Shown here piece by piece: positions 8,181 to 32,697 of a DNA stretch of 64,000 bases. The DNA comes from Desulfobacterales bacterium CG2_30_60_27 (GTDB lineage: Bacteria; Desulfobacterota; Desulfobulbia; Desulfobulbales; CG2-30-60-27), in NCBI GenBank assembly GCA_001873115.1, contig MNYK01000110.1:23118-87117 (forward strand), read 5' to 3'. How positions within the stretch are numbered: position 1 is the stretch's first letter; every line of letters begins with the position of its first letter. The notes below the pieces were generated by a model. That model had not been told where the DNA came from. It made no database searches and saw only the letters and a program-made list of their open reading frames with translations. The position numbers were made by a program, and so were the translations under genes.

Positions 8181-8187
8181 AAAGCCG

Positions 8188-10903: not shown

Positions 10904-11271
10904 GCGCACCTGCCCGCCGGCCTTGCGTCGCCAGAATGCGCGGGGCTGGGCCTGGTCTGAAAAAGCCGGCGCGGCCAATTCCCGCAAGACGCGAGGCCTG
11001 ATCATAGTCGAAAAACGCCGCCGACAGGATGGTTCCGGGACAGATCTCAACACTTATCATCGTGGCACTTCCCCGTGTCTTCTCCAACTTGGCACGGCGA
11101 CCGCCTGGCTTTGGCGTGCATTGTAACAGAACAATACAAAAATACAAATAATTATCAGGCGGTTTTCTGCTGCGTTCCCGGCAGAACGGCTGGCATTTTT
11201 TTTTCGCAAACCAGGTCTCTATATGGTAGAGAAGGTCATCATGGTTTCCTCTAAAAAAATAGGCCTACCCA

Positions 11272-16694: not shown

Positions 16695-16706
16695 GATTTC
16701 TTCAAT

Positions 16707-16865
16707 AGGTGGACAGTCTGTAGAAAAGTATTAAGCAAATATCGAATATCGAACACAGAATGTCGAATCATGAAGTTTTGTTTCGGGCCGTGATTGCTGA
16801 TTTTTGTCTTTGGCAATCGCAGCAGGCGGCGGGCAGCGCTATAGTCTAACCAGCCAAGCAACCTC
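16707..16865. repeat. Degenerate family-B-like element inside the Mla-type operon
   Basis: Begins AGGTGGACAGTCTGTAG (compare AGGTGGATAGACTGTAG at 29357) and ends CTATAGTCTAACCAGCCAAGCAACCT (compare CTACAGTCTAGACAACCT). AT-richer interior. No intact GTAAC termini. Confidence 0.45.
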
Positions 16866-16870
16866 ATCCC

Positions 16871-18028
16871 TCAGATCCCCAACTGATAATAGATGATGGT
16901 CAACAGCGAGGCGGTGATGGTGATAAGCAGGATGCCGGTCACCACGGCCGAGGTCGCCGCCTCACCCACCGCCTCGGCGCTGCGGCCGCACTGTATGCCG
17001 CGCAGGCAGCCGGAATAGGCGACCATGGCGCCGTAAACGCTGCCCTTGGAAAGTCCTACCAGAAAATGCTTCAGTTCCAGGGCCTGTATCGTTTCCGTGT
17101 AATACTCGAAGACGCTGATATGAAAAATCGTGGTCGAGACCAGCATCCCTGCCAGCATACCGATGAAGCCCGCATAGAGGGTCAAAAGCGGCATCATCAG
17201 CATGAGGGCCAGAATGCGCGGTAAGACCAGAAAATCAATGGGCGAGATGCCCAAGGTCTTGAAGGCATCGATTTCCTCGTTGACCTGCATGGTGCCGAGT
17301 TGGGCGGCAAAGGCCGCGCCGGTGCGTCCGGCAATGATAATGCCGGTCATCAGCGCCCCCATCTCGCGTACCATGCCAATGGCGACCAGATCGGCGATAA
17401 AGCGCTGCGCTCCGACCATGCGTAATTGATCGGCCCCCAAATAGGCAAGGATAAGGCCGACCAGAAAACAGATAACCGAGACAATGAGCAGTGCCCTGGG
17501 GCCGATCTCCTCTACCTCCAGCCACAGATCACTCATGCGGAATTGGGCGCGGCCGGTTAGCAGCCGGCCAAAGGACAAGGTGATCTCGCCCAGGAAGTGC
17601 AACATCTCGGGTAGACCACGGAAAAATGCAATCGTCTCCGTGCCAACCTGAACCAACAGGGTTTGCCTGCCGCCCGTCCGGTCGCTCACCTTTTGGGCGG
17701 GCACGGCAAAGGCCATGGTCAGCAGATGGCCAACGCCTGCCGGCAAGCCGCTCTGGTCAACCACGATTCCTCGGCCAACGCAGAATTTTCGCAGGGCGGC
17801 AAGAAAGGCCAGAAATCCGGAGTCCCAGGCGCCAAGTGCATCGGTGCGGAAAGTAAGCCGACGAAGATCCTCGGTCAACTCGGCGTGCAAGGCCGCGGAG
17901 GATGGCAGGTCCTGGTCAATGCACCAGCGCCCGGTGAAGACGACTTGCATTGCATCGGGCTCGATGCGGCGCGTTTCCAGATGCCACGCCGCCTCTTGGT
18001 TGCCAGTTATGGAATGCGCCGTCTTCAT
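16871..18028 (-). CDS. MlaE-family ABC permease with N-terminal STAS/MlaB-like domain
   Basis: The C-terminal ~260 aa is a polytopic MlaE-type permease (GPRALLIVS..., EEIDAFKTLGISP). The N-terminal ~120 aa is a soluble extension. Confidence 0.8.
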   Translation of the reverse strand: MKTAHSITGNQEAAWHLETRRIEPDAMQVVFTGRWCIDQDLPSSAALHAELTEDLRRLTFRTDALGAWDSGFLAFLAALRKFCVGRGIVVDQSGLPAGVGHLLTMAFAVPAQKVSDRTGGRQTLLVQVGTETIAFFRGLPEMLHFLGEITLSFGRLLTGRAQFRMSDLWLEVEEIGPRALLIVSVICFLVGLILAYLGADQLRMVGAQRFIADLVAIGMVREMGALMTGIIIAGRTGAAFAAQLGTMQVNEEIDAFKTLGISPIDFLVLPRILALMLMMPLLTLYAGFIGMLAGMLVSTTIFHISVFEYYTETIQALELKHFLVGLSKGSVYGAMVAYSGCLRGIQCGRSAEAVGEAATSAVVTGILLITITASLLTIIYYQLGI

Positions 18029-18333: not shown

Positions 18334-19770
18334 TTACGGCGCATCATGGCAAAGGCCGCAATCCTGGGTGATGGTCTTGCCCTCCGTCGTGGCATGTTCC
18401 TCGTCATGACAACGCCAGCAGCCATAGCCTTCGTCGGCATACTGGTGCCCCAGGTGGCCCTTGTAGGTGCCCCATTGGATATTCATCTCTGGCCAGACGT
18501 TGGCCATATAGACTTCCAGGAGAAACTCTCCGGCCTTCCCGAGGTCGGCCTCGTGCTGTTTGGCGGTGCCGGGGTCGCGCAGGGTCTGCAAGGCGATAAG
18601 GGCGTCCACCATTTTGGCCTGTGCCTCCTTGCGGGTTGTGTACTGGCTGGTCACGACCGTGAGGCTGTCTTCCCGGATGCCTGGAATTTCAGGGTTGATG
18701 CGCCGGCTGAGCAGGCCGAAATCCACCCGTTCCTCGGGCATCTGATAGACGTGGGTCGGTCGGTTGTGGCAATCGATGCAATCCATGGTCCGCCATTGGT
18801 GTTCCTGGTCCTCCTTGACCTCGGCCAGGTCGCTTTTCACGAACTCTTCCTCGCTGCCGTCGGGCCTGGTCACCTTGACCCGGGCGATCTTGGTCCGCCT
18901 TTCGTCCTCGGCCAGATATTTTACCTGGACATTTTTGCTCACATGCCAGTGGATGCCCTCGAAGGCGTCGGTTTCAGGATTGCGACCGCCGATATGCAGA
19001 GCAATCTCGGTCACCTCTGGCTTGCTCTGGTCGGCGTTGGTGAAGCGTTTGAAGGTCTTGACCTTTTTGCCGTGGAATTTCTCTGGCCAATGGCAGGTCT
19101 CGCAGGTATCGCGGGCCGGGCGCAGATGCTCCACCGGGGCGGGAATCGGCCGGGAGTAGCTGTTGGTGAAAATCGCCACCACCTGCCGGAGGCCGGAGAT
19201 CTTGGCGCGCACGAACCAGTCGGCGCCCGGGCCGATATGGCATTCCACGCAGACTACCCGGGCGTGGGGGGAGCGCTGATAGACCGTGTACTCCGGTTCC
19301 ATGACCTGGTGGCAGACCTGGCCGCAGAAATAGGCGGAGTCGCTGAAGTGATAGCCCTCGTAAGCGACCATGGCAAAGATGCAGACATTGATCACCGTAA
19401 GCACCATGAAACCAATCACCCAGCGCCGATGGCTGTGATCGCTAAGGTTAAGTGTCAGGTGCTCCCTGGATATCCCATACTTGTACCACTTGCGTCGCCG
19501 CAGAAAGGCGGCAATGGGAATCAGGGCCAGCCCGGTGAGCATCAGGCCCGGCAGGATGAGGTAGGTAAAGAAGCCCGCATAGGGGTTGTTAAAAAATCCC
19601 AGCAGGTCCACCGCCATGCCGATCACCAGCAGGGTGGCGCTGATAGTGGTGATGGTAACGCCCATCAGCCCCAAGGGCGACCGCCACATGCCGCGGATGA
19701 TGTGGCCCCACGGCCCTTGGTGCTGCGCTTCATTATTATCTTTTGCCTGTTTACCGGTGTCCTCTGTCAT
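18334..19770 (-). CDS. Membrane-anchored multiheme cytochrome c (NapC/NirT/NrfH-like N-terminal module plus extended periplasmic domain)
   Basis: ORF 18334..19842. Three N-terminal TM helices. Heme motifs CVECH, CETCH, CIDCH, CWRCH and CGLCH, plus an atypical CGQVCH (CX3CH). Likely start is MTEDTGK (19770), preceded by GGGAGAAGG. Confidence 0.85.
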   Translation of the reverse strand: MTEDTGKQAKDNNEAQHQGPWGHIIRGMWRSPLGLMGVTITTISATLLVIGMAVDLLGFFNNPYAGFFTYLILPGLMLTGLALIPIAAFLRRRKWYKYGISREHLTLNLSDHSHRRWVIGFMVLTVINVCIFAMVAYEGYHFSDSAYFCGQVCHQVMEPEYTVYQRSPHARVVCVECHIGPGADWFVRAKISGLRQVVAIFTNSYSRPIPAPVEHLRPARDTCETCHWPEKFHGKKVKTFKRFTNADQSKPEVTEIALHIGGRNPETDAFEGIHWHVSKNVQVKYLAEDERRTKIARVKVTRPDGSEEEFVKSDLAEVKEDQEHQWRTMDCIDCHNRPTHVYQMPEERVDFGLLSRRINPEIPGIREDSLTVVTSQYTTRKEAQAKMVDALIALQTLRDPGTAKQHEADLGKAGEFLLEVYMANVWPEMNIQWGTYKGHLGHQYADEGYGCWRCHDEEHATTEGKTITQDCGLCHDAP

Positions 19771-19855
19771 CACCTTCTCCCATGCTGGAAATTTTTTTTG
19801 CTTATGCCATGCGCAACCACCTCGGGAGGCGGGCATGGCCACTCCGTAATCGACC

Positions 19856-21853
19856 CTAACCGGCCTCTGTTACCGGCAGTGCAATGGAAACCGTGGTATG
19901 ATCGCCTACTACGCTTTCTATCTTGATTTGACCGCCATGGTCCTCCACCAGCATTTTACTGATGGTCAGGCCAAGGCCGGTGCCCTCGCCGGGCGGTTTG
20001 GTGCTGTAAAGGGGATCAAAGACCAAGGGAAGCACACTGGCGTTGATGCCGCCGCCCCAGTCGGTTATCGAGGTGCGCAACCAGCTTCTGCCCTCGGAGA
20101 AGACCACCTCGCCGGTGATGGTTAGCCGCTTTTGTTTGTCCTGGCCTGGATAGCGAGCGTTGAGGGCCTGGCGGGCGTTGTTAAAAATGCAGAGGAAGAC
20201 CAGTTGCATGTATTCCAGGTCGACATCAACGGACGGCAGGGCGCTGGCCAGGGAGATGGTGGCAATGATGCCATCGTTCTTCAGTTGCCGTTCCACCAGG
20301 GCGTAGACGCCTTGTACCACATGCGCCATGGGCAGGCGGGACAAGGTCGGCCGCTTGCCGCGGGATAGAAACAGCAGTTGCCTGAGTACGTCGCCGATGC
20401 GTTCCCCCTCGTCCATGACCTTGCGGAGCAGGTCGGCCTGGGGGCCTCCGGTGGGAGCGAGCTCATCAAACAGCACCTGGGCATAATTGATGATGCCGTT
20501 GACCAGATTCCTGACCTCGTGGGCCACCCCGGCGGCCAGCTCCCCCATGGCCGCAAGGCCGCAAATCCGCACGGTGAGGGCATTGAAGTCGCCCTCCTCG
20601 GTCACCTTCATGTCTCGGACCTGCAGGGCATGACAGGCCAGGGCTGCCTCGTCCACCAAATTGCGCAGGATTTCCATGTCCGTTGCCTGAAAACTGTCAT
20701 CAGCAAGGGCGTAGATAGTGAGCACGCCAAAGACCTCGTCCCGCCAGCGCATGGACAGGGCCGCACCATGCACCGGGCCGGCGGCAAAGGGCGTATTTTT
20801 CAGTAATCCTCTCGGAGTGCCGGCCAGGAGATCCCGGGCGATCACCGGGCCGCCCTGGGCCATGGCCAGATGGGAAGGATCTTTTTCCCTGCCCGAGGCC
20901 CGCACCTGGGCGAGCAGCAAATCCAGACAGACCTCGCATTCATGCTGGTCCATGGTGGTCGAGCCATCCACCGCCACCGGTATTAAGGTGTCGTCCCCAG
21001 CCGTCGCCTGGCCGATCCACACCAGGGCATGGTCGCTGTCCTGCATCAGGGCCCGGCACAGGGACTGGTTGAGTTCCTCGCACGAGCGGGCCTGGCGGAT
21101 GCCCTCGCCGGCCGCGGTCACGGCCGCAAGCAAGTGGTCCCGATGGGCGGCGGCCTTGGCCTGCCGGTCATGCGCCACGATCAGGCCATTGACGGCCTGG
21201 GTCAACTCCACCAGATCATTGCAGGCCTTGGCGTCGTGCTCCAGGATGTCCCTGCCGAACTCCTTTGTCTTACAGCGGGCCACCAGGCCCAAAAGCGGCA
21301 GAATGACCTGCCGGTACCAGAGCAGCACCAAAAAAGTACACAGGCATAGAACCATGGCCAGCCCGCCGATCACCACACTCTGGAACTCCACCAGCACGAC
21401 CTTGGCCTGGCTGGCGACAATGCGGTCAAAACGCATAAGCTGATCACCGATCAGCCGGACCTTGGCGTTGAGCTGGCCGGCCGTCTCCTGGTTTGGCCGG
21501 GCGCCCATTTTTTTGAGCAGCATGATAATCCCTGGCAGGTCCAGTTGATCCAGGAAGGTCAGTTCGTACGCACCGGGAATGCGCCCGCTCTCCAGCACCC
21601 TGACAAGGTCGCCGTTCATCGTTTCGGCCTCCAGGGTAATGGCGGCCATCAGGTCGTAGCGGTTTTCCAGCAGGGCCTCCGTAATCCGCTCTTTTAGCGT
21701 GGCAAAGCGGAAGACAAGTTTTTCGCTCTGCTCGATGACCGCCTGGTACCGTCCGGTCAGGAGGTATTGCCTGGCCCCCAGCAGGACGACAACGCTCAAG
21801 ATGGCGGCCATGAGCAGAATGGTGGTATAGAGGGTTTTTCTGAGGGAAAACAT
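19856..21853 (-). CDS. Sensor histidine kinase (2 TM + periplasmic domain, GAF, HisKA, HATPase_c)
   Basis: H-box [23 protein letters not shown]2 [12 protein letters not shown], and a central GAF-like region. 3-nt gap to the upstream ftsH stop. Confidence 0.85.
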   Translation of the reverse strand: [665 protein letters not shown]

Positions 21854-21856
21854 AAT

Positions 21857-23749
21857 CTATGAGGCGATGGCCTCCTGCATGTGGGTGCAGTGGGCCGCCG
21901 CGGGGCAGGTGCTGCACTCGTGCAGGGAACCGTCTTCACCATGCTCGCTTACCGTTGCGGCTGCCTGTTTTTTCTGGGTGCAGTCGAAGATGATCCGTAA
22001 CTCCTCGCTGTCCAGGGTTTCCGTCTGCAGGAGGATCTCGGCCAGGTTGACCAAAAAATCCTTTTCCTGGTTGATGATGGCCACTGCCTCCCGGTAACAG
22101 CCTTCCACCAGCACCTTGATTTCCTTGTCAATCCGCCGGGCGGTCTCCTCGCTGTGCGCCATCAGGGTGGTCTGCTCGCCCAGAAAGCCGCTGTCATCCT
22201 TGGCATAGGCCAGCGGGCCCATGGTTTCACTCATCCCCCATTTGCAGATCATCTTCATGGCGATCTCCGTGGCCCGGAAAAGATCGTCCTGGGCGCCAGT
22301 GGTCTGCTGGGCGAGGACAATCTCCTCGGCCGCCCGGCCACCAAGAAGGGTGGTGATCCGGGTGCGCAGGTATACCTTGGAATAGGCGTGCCGGTCTTTC
22401 AGGGGCAGTTGCTGGGTATTGCCCATGGCCCGGCCGCGCGGAATGATGGTGATCTTATGGACGGGATCGGATTCCGGCAGAAAGCGTGCCACGATGGCAT
22501 GGCCGGCCTCGTGGTAGGCCATGGTCCGCCGGTCCTTTTCCGTGATGATCAGTCCCTTGCGCTCCACACCCATGAGGATGCGGTCCTTGGCCGCCTCGAA
22601 ATCCGGCAACTCGATGGCCTCCTTGCCATGCCGGGCCGCCAGCAGCGCCGCCTCGTTCACCAGGTTGGCCAGGTCGGCGCCGGTGAAGCCGGGCGTGCTG
22701 CGGGCCACGCTGAACAGATCGATATCCTTCATCACCTTGACCCGCTGGGCGTAGACCTCGAGAATCTTGAGCCGGCCTTTGACATCAGGGGGGAGGATAT
22801 TGATCTGCCGGTCGAAGCGGCCCGAACGGAGCAGGGCCGGGTCCAGAATATCCGGCCGGTTGGTGGCGGCCAGCACCACAATGGTATCGGTGGAACTGAA
22901 ACCGTCGATCTCCACCAGCAGGGCGTTCAAGGTCTGGCCCCGCTCGTCCTGCCCGCCCATGGCGCCGGCCGCGCCGCGATGGGCGCCCACCGCATCGATC
23001 TCGTCAATGAAGATGATGCAGGGGGCGTTCTTCTTGGCCTCCTTGAACAGGTCCCGCACCCGTGAGGCCCCAACGCCCACGAACATCTCCACAAAGTCCG
23101 AGCCGCTGAAGCTGAAGAACGGCACACCCGCCTCGCCGGCAATGGCGCGGGCCAAGAGCGTTTTACCCGTGCCCGGCGGCCCTTGCAGCAAAACACCTTT
23201 CGGGATGGAGGCGCCAATACGGCTAAAATGCGTCGGATTTTTCAGAAACTCGATGATCTCCATCAACTCCTCTTTCGCCTCCGGGATGCCGGCCACGTCC
23301 TTGAAGGTCACCTGTTTTTCACTGGCGTGGTATTTGATGACCTTGTCCTTGGCAAAATCACTTTCCTCCTTGCCTCCCTGCTGACGACGCGCCAAAAATA
23401 TCCAGGCGCCCAAGATGAGCAGCATGGAAATCCCCAGGGAAACGCTGTTCAAGAACAGGTAGGAGTGCTCCGGCCGCGCCGACACCACCACCTGCCGGCC
23501 CATCAATTTGGGCAGCAGGACGTCGATGTCCGGGGAAAATGTCGCCAATTCCCGGCCATTGCTGTCGGTAAAACAGACCTCGCCGCCGCGCAGGCGGACC
23601 TCCTTGACCTCGCCCTTGTTCAGAATGGCGAGAAAGTCGGTGTAATTGATAATTTCCGGCCTGGTCTCCAGGTTCCAGAAAACAACGGCAGTGGCGGCCA
23701 CAATGAGGAGGATGAGGCCGATGAAGAGATTACGAATAAGCAGCGCCAT
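21857..23749 (-). CDS. ftsH: ATP-dependent zinc metalloprotease FtsH (possible paralog with Cys/His-rich C-terminal tail)
   Basis: Two TM segments, Walker [12 protein letters not shown], Walker [19 protein letters not shown] zinc site. Unusual tail DCTQ...[14 protein letters not shown]. Confidence 0.9.
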
Positions 23750-23971
23750 GGCTTTATTCCCTTGGTATGTCAGGAGGATCGGCCGGTCCCCTGCCGGTCA
23801 CGGGTAGGGCCGCCTGTCGCGGACCCGCATGACTTATTATTACCCGAACAATTCTGTTTCGCCATCCATATTCTGACGGCGGCCATGACCGCAGCGCCTT
23901 TTCTCCTGGCTTGCCAGGCCGACACTCACTGTGACATCGTGTCAGAAAGGCCGGCAACCCGGACCCGCACC

Positions 23972-24014
23972 ACAAAAAAAGGTGAAGTGACGACTGCTCG
24001 CCCCTCACCTTTTC
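23972..24014 (-). terminator. Intrinsic terminator ending the small-protein array
   Basis: Minus strand reads AAAGGUGAGG - loop - CUUCACCUUU (10-bp stem, one G-U pair) followed by UUUUUGU. It lies 60 nt after the stop of the last small gene. Confidence 0.7.
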
Positions 24015-24074
24015 TTTACCAACCAGCCCGGCCGGTCCCGCCCCGCGCCGTCTGCTGATTTCACCTGGTCGAGA

Positions 24075-24323
24075 TCAACCGCCCAGCACCGCCTGCACCC
24101 ATTGCGACACAAAGCTCAGCGGGTTGCCGGCGCTCATCATGCCGCCCAGCAGGAAGAGCAAGCCAAGCACCCCGACCACGCCACCCACGGCCAGGATGGT
24201 CACCAGGCCGACCTTGCTCATCTCAAGATCGACATCCTGAACTGCCCGGCTCCGGCCGGTGGCCGTATTGGCGGTATCCTTTGTCCTGACCTTGGCGATT
24301 GCCACTGAAGATATGTCTTTCAT
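24075..24323 (-). CDS. Small single-TM protein, paralog 4 of 4 (82 aa)
   Basis: Shares E.SKVG - Gly-rich TM - GG..S.G.P..F...W..AV.GG with the three upstream genes. AAGAGG RBS. Confidence 0.75.
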   Translation of the reverse strand: MKDISSVAIAKVRTKDTANTATGRSRAVQDVDLEMSKVGLVTILAVGGVVGVLGLLFLLGGMMSAGNPLSFVSQWVQAVLGG

Positions 24324-24350
24324 GTCATAACCTCTTTTATGGAATATGGT

Positions 24351-24575
24351 CTACAATCCAAGCACGGCCCCGAACCAGCCCTTGACAAAAGCGAGCGGCC
24401 CGCCGCTGTTGACCAGACCGCCGACAAAGCAGGAAAGGCCCCAGATGCCGATGAGCGCCGCGACAAAACCGATGACGCCAACCCCAACCTTGGACACCTC
24501 CGCCTCGACCTGGGCGGTTGCCTGACTGGTTACCTTGCTTCTTTCCTTGGATGTGGTGAACGGTTGGTTCATCAT
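24351..24575 (-). CDS. Small single-TM protein, paralog 3 of 4 (74 aa)
   Basis: ORF 24351..24731 trimmed to MMNQPF (ATG at 24575), where an AGGAGA RBS sits 6 nt upstream. The longer N-terminus would overlap paralog 2. Confidence 0.8.
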   Translation of the reverse strand: MMNQPFTTSKERSKVTSQATAQVEAEVSKVGVGVIGFVAALIGIWGLSCFVGGLVNSGGPLAFVKGWFGAVLGL

Positions 24576-24637
24576 GATGTGTCTCCTGTACATGTTTCTT
24601 GCGGATAGTATCTTCCTGGCCTGCATGGGGAAATCCA

Positions 24638-24859
24638 TCAGACCCCAATTACCGCGCCGTACCAGTTTTTGATAAGGGCGAGCGGCCCGCCGCTTTCGAC
24701 CATGCCGCCGATCAAACAGGCCATGGACCACAGCCCGATCAGCGCCGAAGTCAGCCCGAGGCCGACGATGCTCACCCGGGAAATCTCGGCTACCGCCTTT
24801 TCGGTTTCACGAATGGTTACCTTACTGCCGATGAGAGCCTTTTTCGTTGTCGCATTCAT
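24638..24859 (-). CDS. Small single-TM protein, paralog 2 of 4 (73 aa)
   Basis: GGAGGA RBS. Conserved LIGLWSMACLIGGMVESGGPLALIKNWYGAVIG. Confidence 0.8.
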   Translation of the reverse strand: MNATTKKALIGSKVTIRETEKAVAEISRVSIVGLGLTSALIGLWSMACLIGGMVESGGPLALIKNWYGAVIGV

Positions 24860-24916
24860 CTCTTTTTCCTCCGGATTATGGTTTCGCTAACATAATAATT
24901 GTAATTCAATCTGGTC

Positions 24917-25132
24917 TCAGCCGCCGATCACGGCGCTGTACCAGGAGCCGATGAAGGCCACAGGACCAGCGCTGCCGAGCAGGCCGCCAATCAAGCAGGC
25001 CATCGCCCAGAGGCCGACAAGAACCGACCCGATACCCATGGCACTGATCCCGACCTTGTTCAGTTCGCTGTCCAGTTGGACCGTCGCGGTTGTTCTGTTG
25101 ATCGCCTTGGTTCTTGTAGTTGCCCTGTTCAT
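24917..25132 (-). CDS. Small single-TM protein, paralog 1 of 4 (71 aa from ATG 25132; the ORF track starts at GTG 25138)
   Basis: GGAGGA lies 7 nt upstream of ATG 25132. Conserved LVGLWAMACLIGGLLGSAGPVAFIGSWYSAVIGG. Confidence 0.8.
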   Translation of the reverse strand: MNRATTRTKAINRTTATVQLDSELNKVGISAMGIGSVLVGLWAMACLIGGLLGSAGPVAFIGSWYSAVIGG

Positions 25133-25179
25133 GATCACTTCCTCCTGAAGGTTAGCGTTTGCCTTTGTCTGGTATCTAA

Positions 25180-25195
25180 TGCAAGCACAATGCCA
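25180..25195 (-). promoter_or_regulatory. Sigma-54 (-24/-12) promoter of the small-protein array
   Basis: Minus strand reads TGGCATTGTGCTTGCA, which fits TGGCAC-N5-TTGCA with correct GG-N10-GC spacing. It lies about 45 nt upstream of the first small gene and directly downstream of a sigma-54 EBP gene. Confidence 0.8.
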
Positions 25196-25278
25196 AACTG
25201 AAGAAAGTTATGAAGATTTATAAAAAAACAATAGCGTTATGCCGTTGCACGGCGTGGCATCCCGCGTTGCAGTAGAGG

Positions 25279-25304
25279 CCACAGCGTAGGATGATACGCT
25301 GTGG
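25279..25304. promoter_or_regulatory. Palindrome CCACAGCGTA-N6-TACGCTGTGG, candidate enhancer (UAS) site
   Basis: 10-bp perfect inverted repeat about 90 bp upstream of the -24 element. It shares the CCACAG/CTGTGG core with the palindrome at 25379-25420. Confidence 0.4.
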
Positions 25305-25378
25305 TATGGGACGACTTTGTCGCCCATATAATGATGAATGCTGAAAATGGTCCGGGGCGGACCGTGGCGAGAATCCTG

Positions 25379-25420
25379 CCCCATGCCACAGGTGTGTTGC
25401 ACCACATCTGTGGCATGGGG
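25379..25420. promoter_or_regulatory. Palindrome CCCCATGCCACAG-N16-CTGTGGCATGGGG, candidate UAS and/or terminator hairpin of the EBP gene
   Basis: 13-bp perfect inverted repeat 8 nt after the EBP stop codon and about 190 bp upstream of the sigma-54 promoter. No U-tract. Confidence 0.4.
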
Positions 25421-25428
25421 TGAGGTTG

Positions 25429-27219
25429 CTACACTTTTGCTACATTCTCCGCAATGTCATGGATGCGCATTTTGCGGTAAAGGGTGCTGCGGTCGAAGGC
25501 GAGCAGTCTGGCCGCCTTGGCCTTGTTGCCGCCGGTCTGCCGCAGGGCCGCGACAATCCGTTCCTTCTCGCTCATGCCGTCAACAGCCAGGGGAAACAAC
25601 GGGACGGCGGACCGCGGCCGCTGTAGCCCGGTGGTGTCGAGCTCCGAGGGCTGACCGGTGCGGATCTCCTCGGTGAAGTGCTCCAGGGCCACGGTGGAAC
25701 CATCGCAAAGGATGCAGGCCCGTTCGATTACATGTTCAAGCTCGCGGACGTTGCCGGGCCAGCGATACTGCGTAAGGGCCGCCATGGCCTGGTCCGAGAT
25801 GCCGCTGATCTCCTTGCCGAGTTTTTCCTGGAAGATGCCGAGAAAATGCGTTACCAGCAACGGCAGGCACTCCTGGCGGTCCCTGAGCGGCGGCAGCCTG
25901 AGTTCCATCACCCGCAGACGAAAATAAAGATCCTCGCGGAAGGTGCCGTCGGTCACCTTCTGGCGCAGATCGGCGTTGGTGGCCGCTATCACCCGGACAT
26001 CTACCTGGATGGGCTGATCCCGGCCCACGGGATAGAAGGTCTTCTCCTGCAGGAAGCGAAGCAATCTCAACTGCATGCGTGGCGAGATGTCGCCGATCTC
26101 ATCCAGAAAGAGGGTGCCGCCGTCGGCCTGCAGGATGCGGCCCATACGGTCCCGGTCGGCGCCGGTGAAGGAGCCCTTGCGGTGGCCAAACAGCTCGCTT
26201 TCCATGAGTTCCTCCGGGATGGCGGTGCAATCGACCTTGATCAGGGGTTGGTTGCGGCGCGGGCTTTCGGCGTGCAACGCCTCGGCGGCCAGCTCCTTGC
26301 CCGTGCCCGACTCGCCGGTGATGAGCACGGCAGTATCGACCTTGCCGACATTTTCGATCAGGGTATAGAGGGCCTGCATGGCCGGGCTGCAGCCAATAAA
26401 GCGATGGAAGCGGCAGCGGCGCCCCTTGACGTTGGTCTCCGCCTCGCCGGTGACATCGCGGGCCACCAGGACAACGCCCTGAAAAATGCCGGCACCGTCC
26501 TGCAGCGGGGCGGCATTGATGCTCAAAATGCGCTCGCTGTCACCGGGCTTCATGCATTCCACTCGATGTTCCCGTACCTCCTCATGGCTGCGCAGCACCT
26601 TTTGCACGTCCCGGCGGCAGGCCTCGCCAAGCTCACCGGCCATGGTCCCCAGAGTCAGGTCAGAGTCCTTACCGATTTTCAGCCACTCCCGGGCCGTATC
26701 GTTAAGCTGGACGATGCGCAGGTCATTGTCAACCGTGATAATGGCGTCCCGCACTGAACGAAAGACCGTTTCCAGGTAATGCCGGAATCGTTGGTTTTCC
26801 GCCTCCAGCCGCTTCTTTTCTTGAAGCAGTCGCCACTGTTTCAGGGCCTGGCGGGTAAAATGCAGCAAAGACTCCTTGTTGATCGGCTTGGGGAGGTAAT
26901 CAAAGGCGCCGAGACGGACGGCCTCGGCCGCTGTTTCCAGATTGGGGAATCCGGTGATCATGACCACCGGGCATTCGATGCCGGCCGCCCGGATCTCCCG
27001 CAGCAGATCGGTGCCCGAGGCCCCTTCCAGCACGATGTCGCTGATGATCAGATCAAACTCCTGCTGTCTGACCGCGGCCAGCGCCTCCGGATAGGTGGCC
27101 GCGGTGCGAACCATGCCGTACCCTTCACGGGTCAGGAACATCTCAAAGGTAAGTCGCAGGCTCTCCTCGTCGTCCACGATCAGGATGCGTGCCGTGCCTT
27201 TTTCCGTTTCGTCCACCAT
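25429..27219 (-). CDS. Sigma-54-dependent response regulator (REC-PAS-AAA+ sigma-54 interaction-Fis HTH; NtrC/PilR class)
   Basis: ILIVDDE...DLIISDIVL receiver, GESGTGKELAAEALH Walker A, ESELFGHRKGSFTGA (GAFTGA-type loop), C-terminal HTH AARLLAFDRSTLYRKM. Confidence 0.9.
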   Translation of the reverse strand: MVDETEKGTARILIVDDEESLRLTFEMFLTREGYGMVRTAATYPEALAAVRQQEFDLIISDIVLEGASGTDLLREIRAAGIECPVVMITGFPNLETAAEAVRLGAFDYLPKPINKESLLHFTRQALKQWRLLQEKKRLEAENQRFRHYLETVFRSVRDAIITVDNDLRIVQLNDTAREWLKIGKDSDLTLGTMAGELGEACRRDVQKVLRSHEEVREHRVECMKPGDSERILSINAAPLQDGAGIFQGVVLVARDVTGEAETNVKGRRCRFHRFIGCSPAMQALYTLIENVGKVDTAVLITGESGTGKELAAEALHAESPRRNQPLIKVDCTAIPEELMESELFGHRKGSFTGADRDRMGRILQADGGTLFLDEIGDISPRMQLRLLRFLQEKTFYPVGRDQPIQVDVRVIAATNADLRQKVTDGTFREDLYFRLRVMELRLPPLRDRQECLPLLVTHFLGIFQEKLGKEISGISDQAMAALTQYRWPGNVRELEHVIERACILCDGSTVALEHFTEEIRTGQPSELDTTGLQRPRSAVPLFPLAVDGMSEKERIVAALRQTGGNKAKAARLLAFDRSTLYRKMRIHDIAENVAKV

Positions 27220-27236: not shown

Positions 27237-28817
27237 TTATGGCCTGGGGCCGGCCGCGGCCCGGGCATTGTTTTCCCTGCTCACCGGGATGTCCACCGTG
27301 ATTGTCGTATAGTTATCCAGCACCGAATCAACCCGCATGACGCCCTTGTGGTCCCGTACTATCCCGTGGCTGATCGACAGTCCCAGGCCAGTGCCCTCGC
27401 CAGGCGGCTTGGTGGAAAAGAATGGGTCAAAGAGCCGGTTCAGGATCCCCTGGGGGATGCCCTTGCCCCAGTCCGTGATCATGGTCCGGACACACTCGCC
27501 GCCATCCGCCACCACGGCATGACAACTGATCCTGAGCTTCTTGCCCGGGTTCTGCCCCGGATATCTTTCGTTGAGCGCATAGCGGCAGTTGCTGAGCAGG
27601 TTAAGAATCACCTGTTGCAGTTGCTGGGCATGGCCTCGCACCGGCGGCAGATCGTCTTCAAGGTCCAGCGCCAAGGCGATACCGTCTTTCTGAAACTGAT
27701 GTCCGACCAGGGCCAGGCTGTCGCCGATGACTTCCTTCATGCTGACCATGGCGTTGCCCTTGTCAGACTCCCGGGCAAAGGAGAGCAGTTTGTAGATGAT
27801 GGTGGAGATGCGCTCGCCCTCCTTGATAATGCGGGTCAGCAGGTCACGCTGCGGCGCATCCGGCACCATGTCGTCCAGCATGAGTTGGGCATAGTTGATG
27901 ATGCCGTTGATCGGGTTGTTGATTTCATGGGCCACGCCGGCGGCCAGTTCGCCGATGGCGGCCAGTTGCCCGGTGCGCATGGCCTCTACCTTGCGCACCT
28001 CTTCCTTGGTAAGATCACGGGCGACGAGCATGATCTGGCGCACCTCGCCGTTTAAATCGGGAACCGGCGAGACGGTGAGCAGATAGTCGCCGAAGAGGCC
28101 GGGCAACCGCGTTTCCATGATCTTGCGGGCCCGGGTCAGCAGCAGTTCCTCCAACGGGCATTTGATATGGGGCAGCCGGCCGCCGTGGATAATTTTGCAC
28201 ACACCATGGCCGATGATCTCCTCGCGGGTCTTGCGGGCCACGTGGATGGTCGCCGGGTTCACTTCGGTGATAATGCCCTCGGGGGTAACAATCAGGATGG
28301 GATCCTGGACCGCGTTGAACACCTCACCCCAGCCCGGCTGTGAAGGCCCGATATGCTGGTCCCTGAACTTGAACTCAGTGACCAGAAAGCCCAGGTGGCG
28401 CAGTCCGTCCCGCAGTTTGTCCCAGGTGATCGGCTTGGTGATGTAATCGCTGGCCCCGGCCTCGAAGGCCCGATCAATGGCCACCTCCTCATCCTCGGGT
28501 ACCATGAGGATGGTCAGAGTCCTTTCGGCGTCAGGCATCTTCATGATCTGACTGCAAAGATAATAGCCGCTGATATCGGGCAAGTCCACGTCGAGCAGCG
28601 CCACGTCGGGCTGGTTGCGGATAAAGGCGGCCATGGCCGACTCACCGTCCGCCACCTCCTCCACGGTGTAGCCGCTGATCTCCAGAAAACGGCGGATCAT
28701 GAGCCGTCGTTCCCGGTCGGCATAAGCCACCAGAAACCTGGACCATTTCCCCTTGCTTTTGAAGGGTTTTTCTTCCATGGCCAACCTGCTCTTGGGGTGT
28801 CGGGCGCACTGCGACAA
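27237..28817 (-). CDS. Cytoplasmic receiver-PAS histidine kinase
   Basis: N-terminal REC ([13 protein letters not shown]), PAS, H-box [34 protein letters not shown]. No TM segments. 17-nt gap to the EBP gene. Confidence 0.85.
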   Translation of the reverse strand: [526 protein letters not shown]

Positions 28818-28903: not shown

Positions 28904-29335
28904 TCAGACGATAATGGGGTCGCCTGTCTTGGCCTCGCCGCCCTGGATCACCCTGGCAAACCGCCCCTCGCGGGGCATGATGCAGTCGCCGGTGGCCTTC
29001 TTGATGGCGCAGCCCTGGTTGTGACATTCCTTGCCGATCTGGGTGATCTCCAGGATCACCTCGTCGCCGATCCGCAAGCGGTCGCCGATCTTGAGCGCCG
29101 TGAGATCGAGGCCACGGGTGATGATGTTTTCGGCAAAGGCCCCATTCTTTAAAGAAGGAAGGATCTTTTTGACGTTATCGATGGATTCGCCGGCCAGCAG
29201 CGAAATCTGACGGTGCCAGTCGCCGGCGTGGGCGTCATTCTCCATGCCCCACTGGGTTTTCAGGACAACCTTGATCTGTTCGCGCTTGACCATGCCCTTC
29301 TTTTCGCTGATACAGACTGCTTCCACATGCGCCAT
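28904..29335 (-). CDS. MOSC domain-containing protein
   Basis: 143 aa. MOSC-like beta-barrel signature (GAFAENIIT.GLDL...IGD.L.IG....EITQIGKECH). Last gene of the Moco cluster. Confidence 0.7.
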   Translation of the reverse strand: MAHVEAVCISEKKGMVKREQIKVVLKTQWGMENDAHAGDWHRQISLLAGESIDNVKKILPSLKNGAFAENIITRGLDLTALKIGDRLRIGDEVILEITQIGKECHNQGCAIKKATGDCIMPREGRFARVIQGGEAKTGDPIIV

Positions 29336-29353
29336 TGTCGTTATCTCCTTGCG

Positions 29354-29438
29354 GTTAGGTGGATAGACTGTAGGGGTTCAGTCTGTTAGCAATTGATATT
29401 ACCTAACAGACTACAGTCTAGACAACCTGAGTGGTTAC
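29354..29438. repeat. Family-B MITE, short/left-truncated copy
   Basis: AGGTGGATAGACTGTAGG...CTGTTAGC / CTAACAGACTACAGTCTAGACAACCTGAGTGGTTAC. The right terminus is intact and overlaps the moeA stop codon. Confidence 0.6.
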
Positions 29439-30646
29439 CTGAAATCAAAGGAATAAACCAAAACGCGCTCTCCTGGTTGGATCGCCTGCCCAGGCTCCAT
29501 GATGATATAGCCATCACTGTCCACCAGGGAAGTCAACATGTGCGAGCCCTGCCTTGCAGCGCTGGTGGCGGCATAGCCGCCGTCCGCATCGCAGGTCATC
29601 CGCACCCGGAGCATATTGGGCCGGCCGCCCTTGTTGACAATCTCCTCCCCCACTTGCGCGAAGACTATCGGCCAGCCGAAGGACAAGCCGCGGATGGCGC
29701 CGATCAGCGGCCGCACATAGTGGGTGAAACACATGAAGGCCGAGACCGGATTGCCGGGCAGCCCGAAAAGGAGGGTCTTGCCCTTTCTGGCCAGATAGAG
29801 AGGCTTGCCCGGTTTCTGGCGGATCCTCCAGAAGAGGGGGGTAAAGCCGTTCTCCTCGGCCGCCTCCTTGACATGATCATGCCGGCCTACCGAGACGCCG
29901 CCGGTGCAGAGGATGATATCTGCCGCCGCCTGGCCGATGGCCGCTACCGTGGCCTGCCGGTCGTCGGTGATCCTGGCACGGGAGACCAGTTGCGCTCCAG
30001 TCTCCAGTACCGCCGCCCGCAACATGGTCATGTTGGAATCCCGAATCTGATGGTCGGCAATGGCCGAGCCTGCGGCGATCAACTCCGAACCGGTGGCCAG
30101 CAGGGCGACATCACAGGGTTTGAAGACCTTGACCCGAGCAATGCCCACCGCCGCCAGCAGCGCCGCTTGGGGCGCCGCGATCCTGGCTCCCAAGCGTAGC
30201 AAAAGGTCGCCCGTGCCAAACTCCTCGCCACGCTGCCGAACATCTTGTCCCAACCGCTTGGCCACGTTGATGATCACGCTCTGCCCGGCCTCCCGGGTAT
30301 CTTCCACCCGGATTACTGTATCGACCCCATCGGGAAGCATCGCCCCGGTGCTGATCCGCACGGCACAGCCCGCACCCACGGTCCCGGAAAAAGGGACTCC
30401 CGCCCGGCTTTCGCCGATGATTGCAAGAGTCGCGGGCCTCTCCAGGCTCAGGTCGCGGACATCCCCCCAGCGCACGGCATAGCCGTCCATCGCCGAATTG
30501 GTATAGCGGGGCGAGGGTTCGGGAGCCTGGATGTCCTCGGCCAGGTAACGGCCCAGGGCCTGATCGAGCGGGCATTCCTCCACCACCGGGGCCGGAATAT
30601 TCGCCTTGATGATGGCGATTGCTTCACTGATGGAAATCATGGTCAT
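29435..30646 (-). CDS. moeA: Molybdopterin molybdenumtransferase MoeA
   Basis: About 400 aa with MoeA domain order. Motifs SAMDGYAV, TGGVSVGRHDHV, GLPGNPVSA. Confidence 0.9.
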   Translation of the reverse strand: MTMISISEAIAIIKANIPAPVVEECPLDQALGRYLAEDIQAPEPSPRYTNSAMDGYAVRWGDVRDLSLERPATLAIIGESRAGVPFSGTVGAGCAVRISTGAMLPDGVDTVIRVEDTREAGQSVIINVAKRLGQDVRQRGEEFGTGDLLLRLGARIAAPQAALLAAVGIARVKVFKPCDVALLATGSELIAAGSAIADHQIRDSNMTMLRAAVLETGAQLVSRARITDDRQATVAAIGQAAADIILCTGGVSVGRHDHVKEAAEENGFTPLFWRIRQKPGKPLYLARKGKTLLFGLPGNPVSAFMCFTHYVRPLIGAIRGLSFGWPIVFAQVGEEIVNKGGRPNMLRVRMTCDADGGYAATSAARQGSHMLTSLVDSDGYIIMEPGQAIQPGERVLVYSFDFR

Positions 30647-30720
30647 GCATCCTTATCAGCAAGGCTTCATGGAAGATCGGAAGGACCGGACCGATCCGTC
30701 CGATAAGACACTCCACCTCT

Positions 30721-31629
30721 TTAGTGTCCCTTGCCCTGCATCATCGGGAAGATGTGCAACAGTCCGGGGAAGAGAGCCTGCATGCTTTCGAGTGCGCCCT
30801 TGGAGCTGCCGGGCAGGTTGATGATCAAACACTCACCGCGCAGACCGGCCTCGCCTCGGGAGAGCATGGCGTATGGGGTTCGCTCCTTACCGTGCTGACG
30901 GATGGCAAGGGCGATGCCGGGCACGGTCCGGTCAAGGACGGCAATGGTCGCCTCCGGGGTGACATCGCGCGGCCCCAGGCCCGTGCCGCCGGTGGTGAAC
31001 ACCAGTTGGAACCCTTCCTCGTCGGCCAGCTTTTTGAGGCGAGCAATGATGGCCTCGCGATCATCCGGCAGGATCTCATAGCAATCAACCGCCACCGGTT
31101 GATTGGTCAAGAATGCCGCGATCACCTTCCCGGACTTGTCCTCGCGCTTGCCGGCATGGGTGGAATCGGACATCACCAGGATCGCGGTCTTGACCGGAGT
31201 GGGGAAGCGGTCGCTGAAATCGCTTTTACCGCCTTTCTTTTTCACCACCCTTATCTCACCGAAGGAGAGATTCTGGTCCAGCGGTTTCAGCATATCGTAG
31301 GCGTTGAGCAGGGCGCCGGTGACGGCGGTGATTGCCTCGACCTCCACCCCGGTTTTCCAGACCGAACGAACTTCGGCCGAGACCCGAATGCCCTGGTCGT
31401 GCTCCTCCAGCCGCACCTCGATCCAATCCAGGGGGATGGGGTGGCAGAAGACGATCAGATCGCTGCAATGCTTGGCGGCCAGGATGCCGGCGGCCCGGGC
31501 CACTTCGAGCACATCGCCCTTGGGTACCGTCCTGGCAAAGACCCGGCGCAGAACCTCGGGACTGCCATACAAAAAACCCTCGGCCAGGGCGGAGCGCAGG
31601 GTATGAAACTTGTGGCTGACATCGAACAT
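30721..31629 (-). CDS. moaC: Bifunctional cyclic pyranopterin monophosphate synthase MoaC / MoaB(Mog)-type molybdopterin adenylyltransferase domain
   Basis: N-terminal half is MoaC (KGDVLEVARAAGILAAKHCSDLIVFCHP). C-terminal half is MogA/MoaB (FTTGGTGLGPRDVTPEA). Confidence 0.85.
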   Translation of the reverse strand: MFDVSHKFHTLRSALAEGFLYGSPEVLRRVFARTVPKGDVLEVARAAGILAAKHCSDLIVFCHPIPLDWIEVRLEEHDQGIRVSAEVRSVWKTGVEVEAITAVTGALLNAYDMLKPLDQNLSFGEIRVVKKKGGKSDFSDRFPTPVKTAILVMSDSTHAGKREDKSGKVIAAFLTNQPVAVDCYEILPDDREAIIARLKKLADEEGFQLVFTTGGTGLGPRDVTPEATIAVLDRTVPGIALAIRQHGKERTPYAMLSRGEAGLRGECLIINLPGSSKGALESMQALFPGLLHIFPMMQGKGH

Positions 31630-31665
31630 GGAAAACTCCTAAAAAAAAAGGGGCAGGGGCAGGTT

Positions 31666-32697
31666 TCACCCCCCGATGCTGGCCATGGTGGGGGGGGTAG
31701 CCCTACGGCAGTTTGCCTCGGTCGCCAGGCCGTCCCGATAACGGTGGCTGACCACGGCCCTGACGGCGGCGGTGATCTCGTGGTCGGCGGCGTTGGACCG
31801 CAGCATGGCCTTCAGGTCTAGGACGCCGTTGTCGTAAAGACAGGTCTTCAGCATACCGGTTGGCGTGATCCGGATCTTGTTGCAGGTGGCGCAGAAGCGG
31901 CGGGAGTTGCCTTCAATCAGACCGATGGTGCCGGCAAAGCCAGGAATGGCATAAAGTCTGGCGGTGGCCGGCACGCCCGTCACCAGCGGAAGCATGGCCG
32001 GGAACAGGTGATGCAAACGGTCGCGCAGCGATCGGTTCGTTTGCGGCCGCACGTCGGGCGTGCCCGAGAAAGGCATTTTTTCAATAAAGCGCAAACACAG
32101 CGGGTGACGTTCTGGGAGTTCGGCCAGGGCCAGAATCTCGGCATCCGTAGTGTCTTCCAGGACCACGGCATTGATTTTGAGCGGCAGGCGGCGCACAATA
32201 CAGCCGTCCAGGGTGGCCAGCACCTCGGCCAGGTGGTCCCGCCGGGAGATCTGCTGGAAACGGTTGCGGTCCAAGGTGTCGAGGCTGAGGTTGATGCCGG
32301 CGATGCCCAGTGCGGCCAGCTCGTCGAGATAGCGGAGGGTCTTCACGCCGTTGGTGGTAATGTGCAGGGAACTTACCGTATCCATGCCCTGCAAGCGCCA
32401 CATGAACGGCAGGCAATCGCGCCGGGCAAAGGGCTCGCCGCCGGTGATGCGGATCTTGGAAAGCCCCAGGGCCGACAGCAGCCGCACCAGGCGTTCGAGT
32501 TCTTCAAAGGAAAGCATCTCCGCATGGGGTACGAAATCGACCCCGCATAAAGGCATGCAATACCGGCAGCGCAGGTTGCAACGGTCAGTGATGGCCAGTC
32601 GCAGATAGGTGATCTGTCGGCCATAATTGTCGGTCAGGCTGTCGATGCGATGGGCTCGGGAATGGGGGAGGGGATTCCCCCGCTGTGGCGCTGTCAT
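31666..32697 (-). CDS. moaA: GTP 3',8-cyclase MoaA (radical SAM)
   Basis: CNLRCRYC radical-SAM triad, C-terminal CATCNKIRITPTG auxiliary cluster motif, terminal GG. Confidence 0.9.
   Translation of the reverse strand: MTAPQRGNPLPHSRAHRIDSLTDNYGRQITYLRLAITDRCNLRCRYCMPLCGVDFVPHAEMLSFEELERLVRLLSALGLSKIRITGGEPFARRDCLPFMWRLQGMDTVSSLHITTNGVKTLRYLDELAALGIAGINLSLDTLDRNRFQQISRRDHLAEVLATLDGCIVRRLPLKINAVVLEDTTDAEILALAELPERHPLCLRFIEKMPFSGTPDVRPQTNRSLRDRLHHLFPAMLPLVTGVPATARLYAIPGFAGTIGLIEGNSRRFCATCNKIRITPTGMLKTCLYDNGVLDLKAMLRSNAADHEITAAVRAVVSHRYRDGLATEANCRRATPPTMASIGG

Follow-up and report, generated by a model that had tools for sequence, protein, structure and literature searches.

The genome of Desulfobacterales bacterium CG2_30_60_27 encodes, within the 64,000-nucleotide (nt) stretch of contig MNYK01000110.1 that was analysed (the window, in which every feature given below by its coordinates is on the minus strand), four tandem genes for small, paralogous membrane proteins, designated sA to sD. 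The four are real genes under selection, belong to a large family for which no name was found, and, as judged from their promoter and the adjacent regulatory gene, form an activator-linked, sigma-54-type operon. In related Desulfobulbia the operon is accompanied by a quinone-linked cytochrome module and often by an FtsH protease. Our preferred reading, to which we give a probability of about 0.45, is that sA to sD are made on induction as accessory subunits or modulators of quinol:cytochrome c modules and that the linked FtsH turns them over.

The small-gene array and its family

The initial annotation, made from the sequence and its open reading frames (ORFs), had described four tandem genes of 71-82 amino acids (aa), which are present as sA (24917..25132, 71 aa), sB (24638..24859, 73 aa), sC (24351..24575, 74 aa, beginning MMNQ) and the divergent paralogue sD (24075..24323, 82 aa). 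The gene starts needed a single correction, the ATG of sA being at 25132, one base off the start formerly implied. Each gene is preceded, 6-9 nt upstream, by its own purine-rich Shine-Dalgarno sequence (AGGAGG, GGAGG, AGGAG and AGAGG for sA to sD, respectively). The translations align over their full length with ten invariant positions (E23, V27, G40, G49, G50, P57, W64, A67, V68 and G70), and hydropathy analysis finds one hydrophobic segment in each, which agrees with their description as paralogous single-transmembrane proteins. All four begin with a variable polar N-terminus followed by E-x-[SN]-[KR]-V-[GS] and a Gly-rich hydrophobic stretch, which in three of the four includes G-[LI]-W-x2-[AS]-C-x2-G-G, and end with an [SA]-G-x-P turn and a C-terminal W-x2-A-V-x-G. 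As had been noted, one product lacks both the conserved Trp and the conserved Cys; this is sD, which also has SAGNPL in place of SGGPL. The AlphaFold2 model of sA, built from 111 sequences, has helices at residues 4-53 and 58-69 joined by a turn at 54-57, with a mean predicted local distance difference test score (pLDDT) of 67 that rises to about 80 in the transmembrane part.

Orthologous arrays are found in two other genomes: that of locus L123 has four genes (70, 72, 74 and 81 aa) in the same order as in the window, and that of locus L122 keeps the A, C and D types. The products of sA, sC and sD are each nearest to their positional orthologues (61-89% identity) rather than to the adjacent paralogues (32-51%); sB and its L123 counterpart have diverged further (42% identity). 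The ratio of nonsynonymous to synonymous substitution rates (dN/dS) for orthologue pairs with unsaturated synonymous sites is 0.13-0.23, the extremes being sC against its L122 orthologue (89% identity, dN/dS 0.13) and the sD lineage (dN/dS 0.23), which is 75-85% identical across genomes and 32-41% identical to sA, sB and sC of the window. Purifying selection, the absence of which would have spoken against the initial annotation, is thus detectable in these small ORFs, and because gene order is also conserved and the family is large, sA to sD are real genes under selection. Duplication into the distinct lineages is evidently old, because sA, sC and sD are closer to their positional orthologues than to their paralogues in the window, and sD especially is a divergent lineage. 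Four ancient paralogue lineages of conserved order would be compatible with the hetero-oligomer that had been suggested for these proteins.

A profile of sA to sD identified 113 relatives of 65-108 aa in an indexed protein collection; those that are named are all called hypothetical, and none of the 113 carries a precomputed Pfam domain. An exhaustive profile search of 1.84 billion cluster representatives (clusters of 50% identity) matched 465 proteins at E <= 0.001 and 187 at E <= 1e-10, giving a family of at least 465 clusters; the 150 matches listed of these 465 are 64-127 aa long and none is fused to another domain. The family had not been recognised in the initial annotation, and the profile searches since run agree: sA to sD gave no match above noise in Pfam, NCBIfam, PHROGs or PADLOC, the family profile matched no PDB sequence, and an Rfam scan of positions 23500-25700 found no match. 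Most members are listed in the collection with neither accession nor name, among them several that are on NCBI contigs, and the family appears to be largely unannotated, probably owing to the very short ORFs. In an alignment of 111 relatives the N-terminal part, a tail with a median length of 27 residues, is the least conserved and the hydrophobic part is the conserved region. The sigma-54 regulatory logic and the existence of tiny accessory subunits of respiratory complexes are already known in kind, but the family, its size, its strict linkage to sigma-54 and its cluster with ImcH-like or Hmc-like modules and FtsH turned up nowhere in the literature and databases searched, and a paper on the sigma-54 regulome of Desulfovibrio vulgaris has no obvious counterpart of the small-gene unit.

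Two sets of loci were compared. Set 1, from a scan of one genome per species with an alignment of 12 small-family sequences as the query, has 28 loci; neighbouring genes were counted in the 23 of at least 9 kb, and promoters in 29 loci (the 28 and the window). All set-1 loci that have a taxon name are from Desulfobulbia, among them the cultured Desulfogranum mediterraneum DSM 13871 and Desulfobulbus sp. Tol-SR, and each has one to three small-family members in tandem. Set 2 comprises divergent members obtained by contig look-ups and a metagenome scan of 80 loci, with counts made on 31 loci of at least 9 kb. A protein from a metagenome-assembled genome labelled Geobacteraceae was rejected as a Geobacter member of the family: its nearest relatives are Desulfobulbus proteins, and its contig has probably been mis-binned.

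Promoter, activator and terminator

The near-consensus -24/-12 promoter that had been proposed upstream of sA is present as TGGCATTGTGCTTGCA (25180..25195, located by a consensus scan, with GG at 25194-25193 and GC at 25182-25181), and the predicted transcription start is near 25169. It is the sole match to TGGCAY-N5-TTGCW in the 64-kb window, against a chance expectation of 0.24 that makes it not significant alone; what makes TGGCATTGTGCTTGCA convincing is its conservation across loci. In each of the 29 loci (set 1 and the window) the first small gene is preceded, at a distance of 11-138 nt, by a -24/-12 element, with GG and GC fixed and 8-10 of the 11 consensus positions matched. When the stringent pattern TGGCAY-N6-TGCW was scanned over both strands of 75 loci (944 kb), 119 matches were found against about 7 expected by our own estimate from uniform composition; 77 are within 400 nt upstream of a small gene, 15 are upstream of a c3/c7-like cytochrome gene, and none of the 119 is inside another annotated gene of the cluster.

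The protein encoded immediately upstream of the array is a sigma-54 enhancer-binding protein (25429..27219, 596 aa) with the Pfam architecture REC-PAS-Sigma54_activat-HTH_8, in which the Sigma54_activat domain scores 229.9 bits. The GSFTGA loop read from its translation is a variant listed for a Desulfovibrio activator (PMC4641369). Matches to NCBIfam models of the NtrC/AtoC/ZraR class are all below the equivalog cut-offs, as is the match to the pspF model (252 bits, cut-off 443.55); the activator and the kinases of the cluster score best against the AtoC/ZraR and AtoS/ZraS models. Orthologues of the activator, 55-65% identical, precede the small genes in 22 of the 23 set-1 loci. Upstream of it is a hybrid histidine kinase, HK1 (27237..28817, 526 aa, REC-PAS-HisKA-HATPase_c by Pfam, with an uncertain TTG start), apparently soluble, in which hydropathy analysis finds no hydrophobic segment; its counterpart is directly upstream of the activator in most related loci. 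The domains of both proteins agree with the REC-PAS histidine kinase and NtrC/PilR-class activator of the initial annotation. With a conserved promoter of proper -24 GG/-12 GC spacing and a cognate AAA+ activator that has a GAFTGA-type loop, the small-gene array is, on present sequence evidence, an activator-linked operon of the sigma-54 type.

Two CCACAG/CTGTGG palindromes had been described upstream of the promoter. Both repeats exist, but these arms are not conserved across loci and were rejected as a conserved upstream site; TGCAACAC recurs instead. The distal repeat (25379..25420) has 21-nt arms that match at 90% and carries TGCAACAC at its centre (25401..25394), which makes it a candidate site for activator binding, some 210 bp ahead of the promoter. 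The proximal upstream region (25244..25304) consists of a perfect palindrome with 10-nt arms, CCACAGCGTA/TACGCTGTGG (25304..25279, 100% arms), and two copies of TGCAAC (25271..25266 and 25249..25244) that are 22 nt apart; the palindrome is specific to the window genome, whereas the TGCAAC element recurs across loci. In either set, no 8-mer recurs more often ahead of the small genes than TGCAACAC/GTGTTGCA (12 of 23 and 26 of 35 loci), which is often present as phased copies. Direct reading of the sequence places an A/T-rich tract (25197..25240) between the upstream sites and the promoter; A-rich k-mers recur at the same place in other loci, and the tract may be a bending region, an integration host factor site not being established. 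The operon ends at the intrinsic terminator that had been proposed (23974..24016), a hairpin missed by a simple consensus scan that on explicit folding has -37.5 kcal/mol (z = -6.7 against shuffled sequences) and is followed by a T run.

Linkage to FtsH and quinone-linked cytochrome modules

The initial annotation had treated the array as a self-contained unit, and it does have its own promoter and terminator, but in function it apparently belongs to a wider, conserved set of genes, which runs HK1, activator, small genes, FtsH, a second sensor kinase (HK2) and a 502-aa membrane multihaem cytochrome. The likely biology changes because the unit sits with an FtsH protease, a second kinase and a cytochrome of the quinol-dehydrogenase type. 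Synteny of the kinase, activator and small genes across Desulfobulbales, proposed earlier as a check, is borne out by set 1, in which the activator is adjacent in 22 of 23 loci; the cytochrome module is present in 21, FtsH in 18 and HK2 in 18.

The cluster-linked FtsH (21857..23749, 630 aa) is an AAA+/M41 zinc protease by Pfam and by a TIGR01241 score of 747 bits, above the cut-off, and the Walker motifs and HEAGH are intact in its translation. It adjoins the small genes in 18 of 23 set-1 and 12 of 31 set-2 loci, and the linkage is kept where the gene is inverted (L010, L022-L024) or moved (L009). The C-terminal tail of FtsH (21857-21920) is rich in Cys and His, and a tail motif, E-C-x2-C-P-A-[KR]-G-H-C-x-H with 4-6 Cys, is also found in L008, L009, L011-L016, L018, L021 and L028, but not in the FtsH copies of set 2; it may be a metal or redox site.

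HK2 (19856..21853) is a membrane sensor kinase with the Pfam architecture GAF-HisKA-HATPase_c, in which two transmembrane segments, identified by hydropathy, flank a putative periplasmic region of about 120 aa; its start overlaps the stop of FtsH. The N-terminal 225 aa of HK2 are conserved beside the cytochrome in related loci. In L001-L007 (at about 7400-8500) the tblastn match is limited to the N-terminal 230-290 or so residues of HK2, between the small genes and the cytochrome, and may represent a stand-alone sensor-domain protein with no matching kinase core.

The cytochrome gene (18334..19842, 502 aa) begins 14 nt past HK2, beyond the region of the initial annotation. Its product has three N-terminal transmembrane segments by hydropathy, a NapC/NirT/NrfH-type region (Pfam Cytochrom_NNT, a partial match to TIGR03153 NrfH, and PDB NrfH 2J7A at E = 0.0015) and haem motifs of which the first is CX3CH and the next five are CXXCH. 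It thereby resembles the published description of ImcH of Geobacter (GSU3259), which has three helices, NapC/NirT homology and CXXXCH as its first motif (PMC4251993), except that it has six haem motifs rather than seven; the two proteins were matched by description. The imcH gene is monocistronic and reported to be constitutively expressed in Geobacter (PMC4251993; bioRxiv 10.1101/2021.04.15.440034), whereas the window gene follows those of FtsH and a sensor kinase. An ImcH-like cytochrome is encoded in 26 of the 28 Desulfobulbia genome loci and is duplicated in seven of them.

Set-2 loci differ in the type of module. Their usual order is HK1 (not always present), activator, small gene, a partner protein of about 100 aa, FtsH (again not always present), a c3/c7-like cytochrome of about 175 aa, an HmcB-like iron-sulfur protein (409.5 bits, equivalog cut-off 420), an HmcC-like NrfD protein (358 bits, cut-off 550) and a GAF kinase, often followed by extra pairs of small gene and partner. 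Among the 31 loci the partner is present in 28, the activator in 26, the redox module in 24, the GAF kinase in 22 and FtsH in 12. HmcABC-like genes accompany the small gene in set 2, and the module in the window is NrfH/ImcH-like instead. In 17 of 45 set-2 cases the HmcABC-like operon has a sigma-54 promoter of its own, and in several such loci clusters of TGCAACA lie about 240 nt upstream of that promoter; these two features suggest that the small genes and the redox module of those loci belong to one regulon.

The partner has two hydrophobic segments, between which R-Q-Y-M-V-A-x-G and T-L-V-D-F-Y-T-H-I-K-G-x-E-Y are conserved in that order. Its N-terminal half is homologous to the small family (hhalign probability 94.5%, E = 7.5e-8, residues 27-68 of the family against 13-53 of the partner). 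The partner family has 2055 matches at E <= 0.01, and the named carriers are Desulfobulbales (Desulfofustis limnaeus, Desulfobulbus oligotrophicus and D. rhabdoformis). Among the matches listed, most carry precomputed Pfam matches, flagged as weak, to PF28260 (DVU_0533); a local Pfam scan of the partner gave no PF28260 match at E <= 1. DVU_0533 is HmcD, a 5.8-kDa hydrophobic peptide of the Hmc complex. In L123 no genuine HmcD gene was found beside the NrfD gene.

Some loci have further copies, in part outside the main cluster. Three to four pairs of small gene and partner occur 1.3-1.9 kb apart in L031 (6413-12485), two of them separated by a split Y1 (IS200-type) transposase, which suggests recent amplification. 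In L035 (6683-9225) extra copies directly follow a DegP/HtrA-type protease and converge on a REC-sigma-54 activator and a HAMP kinase, and in L055 (6219-9750) they are beside a 1-Cys peroxiredoxin and a divergent 487-aa cytochrome (Cytochrome_C554-like). The same divergent cytochrome is found in L049, and both L049 and L072 otherwise appear like L055 by the size of their ORFs.

Directly downstream of the cytochrome in the window is an Mla-like lipid-transport set (14288-18028; MlaE permease, ABC ATPase, MlaD and an auxiliary lipoprotein); MlaE was not found in the related loci. A further hybrid kinase (8933-11053, 706 aa, PAS-HisKA-HATPase-REC) is encoded about 7 kb downstream of the cluster. 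Upstream of HK1 (28904-32697) are ORFs whose translations look like molybdenum cofactor genes (MOSC, MoeA, MoaC/MoaB and MoaA), and a MoaA-type gene also precedes HK1 in L123.

Function of the small proteins

If sA to sD are accessory parts of anaerobic respiration, they would be four small inner-membrane proteins, each with a polar, disordered N-terminal tail of 25-35 residues in the cytoplasm, a single transmembrane helix rich in small residues with a conserved G-x-W-x2-[AS]-C-x2-G-G face and, after a Gly/Pro turn, a C-terminal helix of 12-14 residues that ends in A-V-x-G, probably at the periplasmic face. We infer this topology, N-terminus inside and C-terminal helix periplasmic, because the partner has a two-segment layout with basic ends. 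Transcription of the four as one operon from the sigma-54 promoter would need the adjacent REC-PAS-AAA+ activator, itself most likely phosphorylated via the soluble HK1, the membrane GAF kinase HK2 or both. Because the HK2 gene, between the dedicated FtsH gene and the gene of the ImcH-like quinol-dehydrogenase cytochrome, adjoins the latter, the small proteins may be what is induced by a circuit connected with the branch of respiration that links quinones to periplasmic cytochromes. They would assemble in the membrane, probably as hetero-oligomers packed via their small-residue faces, and serve the ImcH-like module in the window and HmcABC-like modules in sister loci, where a longer paralogue has a putative HmcD-type domain. 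The linked FtsH would remove them, starting from the long N-terminal tails. In E. coli, FtsH initiates degradation of membrane proteins at a free tail, on the cytoplasmic side, of at least about 20 residues, and turnover by FtsH is proposed here because tails of 25-35 residues (median 27 in the family) are long enough.

The association with cytochrome modules is proposed from guilt by association and from the HmcD-type domain of the partner. A quinone-linked cytochrome module occurs in 21 of 23 set-1 and 24 of 31 set-2 loci, and the association persists though the type of module is swapped. HmcD (PF28260, with an equivalent in the nine-haem Nhc complex) is, like the proteins of the sA-sD family, a tiny hydrophobic protein encoded near a quinone module, for HmcD one of periplasmic multihaem cytochrome, iron-sulfur protein (HmcB) and NrfD-type protein (HmcC), and it is linked to the partner both by the weak precomputed PF28260 matches and by the HmcB- and HmcC-like genes that the partner adjoins. 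In contrast to HmcD, sA to sD have no PF28260 match, are in a window that has no HmcABC genes, and come as one to four paralogues transcribed from a sigma-54 promoter of their own, outside the operon of the complex. Since the function of HmcD is not known, the comparison transfers context and not mechanism.

A regulatory parallel may be drawn with the cbcBA operon of Geobacter sulfurreducens, in which a sigma-54 promoter is followed by GSU0597, GSU3489, a REC protein, CbcB and CbcA, so that two small hypothetical proteins stand ahead of a quinone-oxidoreductase cytochrome; expression depends on the activator BccR and is induced at low redox potential (bioRxiv 10.1101/2021.04.15.440034). By description, both systems combine a REC-type sigma-54 activator with an adjacent sigma-54 operon, small proteins and an inner-membrane quinone-oxidoreductase cytochrome, and cbcBA may thus serve as a precedent for small hypothetical proteins heading the sigma-54 operon of a redox-induced cytochrome. 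The Geobacter small genes, however, are co-transcribed with the cytochromes, whereas the window has a terminator between them, as well as FtsH and two kinases.

Several points weigh against a respiratory role. The terminator in the window parts the small genes from those of FtsH, HK2 and the cytochrome, and no stringent sigma-54 promoter was found upstream of FtsH, HK2 or the cytochrome in set 1 (0 of 43, 45 and 33), so that co-regulation with the cytochrome is unsupported in this clade. PF28260 was matched by none of the 113 small-family relatives, the matches of the partner to it are weak, and either half of the partner may be the one that matches HmcD. FtsH is absent from many set-2 loci, 12 of 31 having one. 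The charge bias supports the topology weakly, the AlphaFold2 model (pLDDT 67) is of medium confidence, and for every family member the support comes wholly from genes and sequence. In addition, the family copies in other contexts, beside a DegP-like protease or a peroxiredoxin, would fit stress as well or better.

A stress function is a real, though doubtful, possibility: sA to sD may be membrane or envelope stress effectors, induced upon damage to the membrane or periplasm (redox, oxidative or proton-motive-force stress), that stabilise the membrane or titrate a protease, with the cytochrome and HK2 acting as a stress sensor only. The logic would be that of Psp (PspF-PspABC/G) and ZraSR-ZraP, in which small envelope proteins are expressed from a promoter of their own under a sigma-54 activator; like zraP and pspA, the small genes have their own promoter and terminator, PspB, PspC and PspG are likewise small single-pass proteins, and the FtsH neighbour recalls the theme of membrane quality control. 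The neighbours that persist most, regulators aside, are quality-control proteases (FtsH in 18 of 23 and 12 of 31 loci, DegP/HtrA directly upstream in L035), the extra copies adjoin a 1-Cys peroxiredoxin in L055 and, judged by ORF layout, also in L049 and L072, and the best scores of the activator and kinases are against the AtoC/ZraR and AtoS/ZraS models. However, sA to sD have no sequence similarity to PspA, PspB, PspC, PspG or ZraP, and among the annotated neighbours no homologue of PspA/IM30 or ZraP was found, respiratory cytochrome modules being linked instead. Nor does the activator resemble PspF, as it has REC and PAS domains and is below the pspF (252 bits, cut-off 443) and ZraR cut-offs; with no Pfam or NCBIfam match for sA to sD, assignment to the Psp proteins was rejected. 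Stress alone also leaves unexplained why a quinone-linked cytochrome module is kept when its type is swapped, why the HmcABC-like operon has a sigma-54 promoter, and why the partner has an HmcD-type domain.

It is improbable, in our estimate, that sA to sD are instead feedback regulators that bind the transmembrane region of HK2 (or FtsH) and tune signalling, with FtsH setting their lifetime and the memory of the circuit. The E. coli peptides MgrB, which acts on PhoQ, and SafA are precedents for small-protein regulators of kinases, a single membrane pass rich in small residues lends itself to contacts between helices, and the small genes are always beside the activator and mostly beside a membrane kinase with a conserved two-transmembrane sensor region, the N-terminal 230-290 or so residues of which are all that is matched between the small genes and the cytochrome in L001-L007. 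Four ancient, ordered lineages and repeated pairs (up to four in L031) nevertheless exceed the usual need of such a regulator, the dedicated strong promoter and terminator suggest a high copy number, and the HmcD-type domain of the partner speaks for a respiratory complex and not for a kinase.

Export, whether as pilin-like filament subunits or as class II (GxxxG-type) bacteriocin precursors with a polar leader, is hardly credible: the order of kinase, sigma-54 activator and small hydrophobic gene with its own terminator resembles the pilS-pilR-pilA order of Geobacter-type loci, the set-2 succession of genes of about 70 and 100 aa is superficially like a pilA-N/pilA-C pair, the tandem paralogues do have a polar N-terminus ahead of a hydrophobic C-terminal part rich in Gly, and a few Joint Genome Institute (JGI) records call partner-family proteins bacteriocin exporters (a name unfit for a 100-aa protein), but neither the four proteins nor the 111 relatives have the G/FTLIE prepilin leader and cleavage motif or the G/xxxxEY motif of Flp pilins, as the initial annotation had recognised, the conserved Glu, which in the alignments begins E-x-S-K-V-G, precedes the hydrophobic stretch rather than following a Gly cleavage site, and no pilin or Flp Pfam match was obtained at E <= 10. 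Type IV and Flp-Fap pilins were ruled out on these grounds and by the absence of pilus-assembly genes from the loci, to which this comparison was confined, there being no prepilin peptidase, secretion ATPase, C39-peptidase ABC exporter or immunity gene among the annotated neighbours; class II bacteriocins were rejected for want of an exporter there, of a fixed GG site and of any PHROGs or PADLOC match, and because a variable N-terminus with a conserved hydrophobic part is the reverse of leader and core peptides.

Whatever their function, the small proteins define a large, unannotated family, whose genes lie in a conserved cluster of sensor and activator together with quinone modules of ImcH-like or Hmc-like type and often with an FtsH of its own. 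Desulfobulbales, the order that includes the cable bacteria, drive sulfur-, iron- and electrode-linked electron transfer in sediments, and the cluster yields candidates for regulated accessory subunits of their anaerobic respiratory complexes, while giving a genomic context to HmcD-type peptides, the role of which in the Hmc complex is still undefined. Experiments are feasible, since Desulfogranum mediterraneum DSM 13871, Desulfobulbus sp. Tol-SR and Desulfofustis limnaeus, all of them in culture, carry the cluster. A more far-reaching version of the respiratory reading, which we think rather unlikely, is that the small proteins and the partners with HmcD domains are a new class of sigma-54-induced, FtsH-timed membrane subunits that switch or gate the flow of electrons between menaquinol and periplasmic multihaem cytochromes of ImcH-like or HmcABC-like type. 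If so, this would be the first functional assignment for HmcD-type peptides, and Desulfobulbales could adapt the wiring of their respiratory chain to the redox potential of the electron acceptor that the linked GAF kinase senses.

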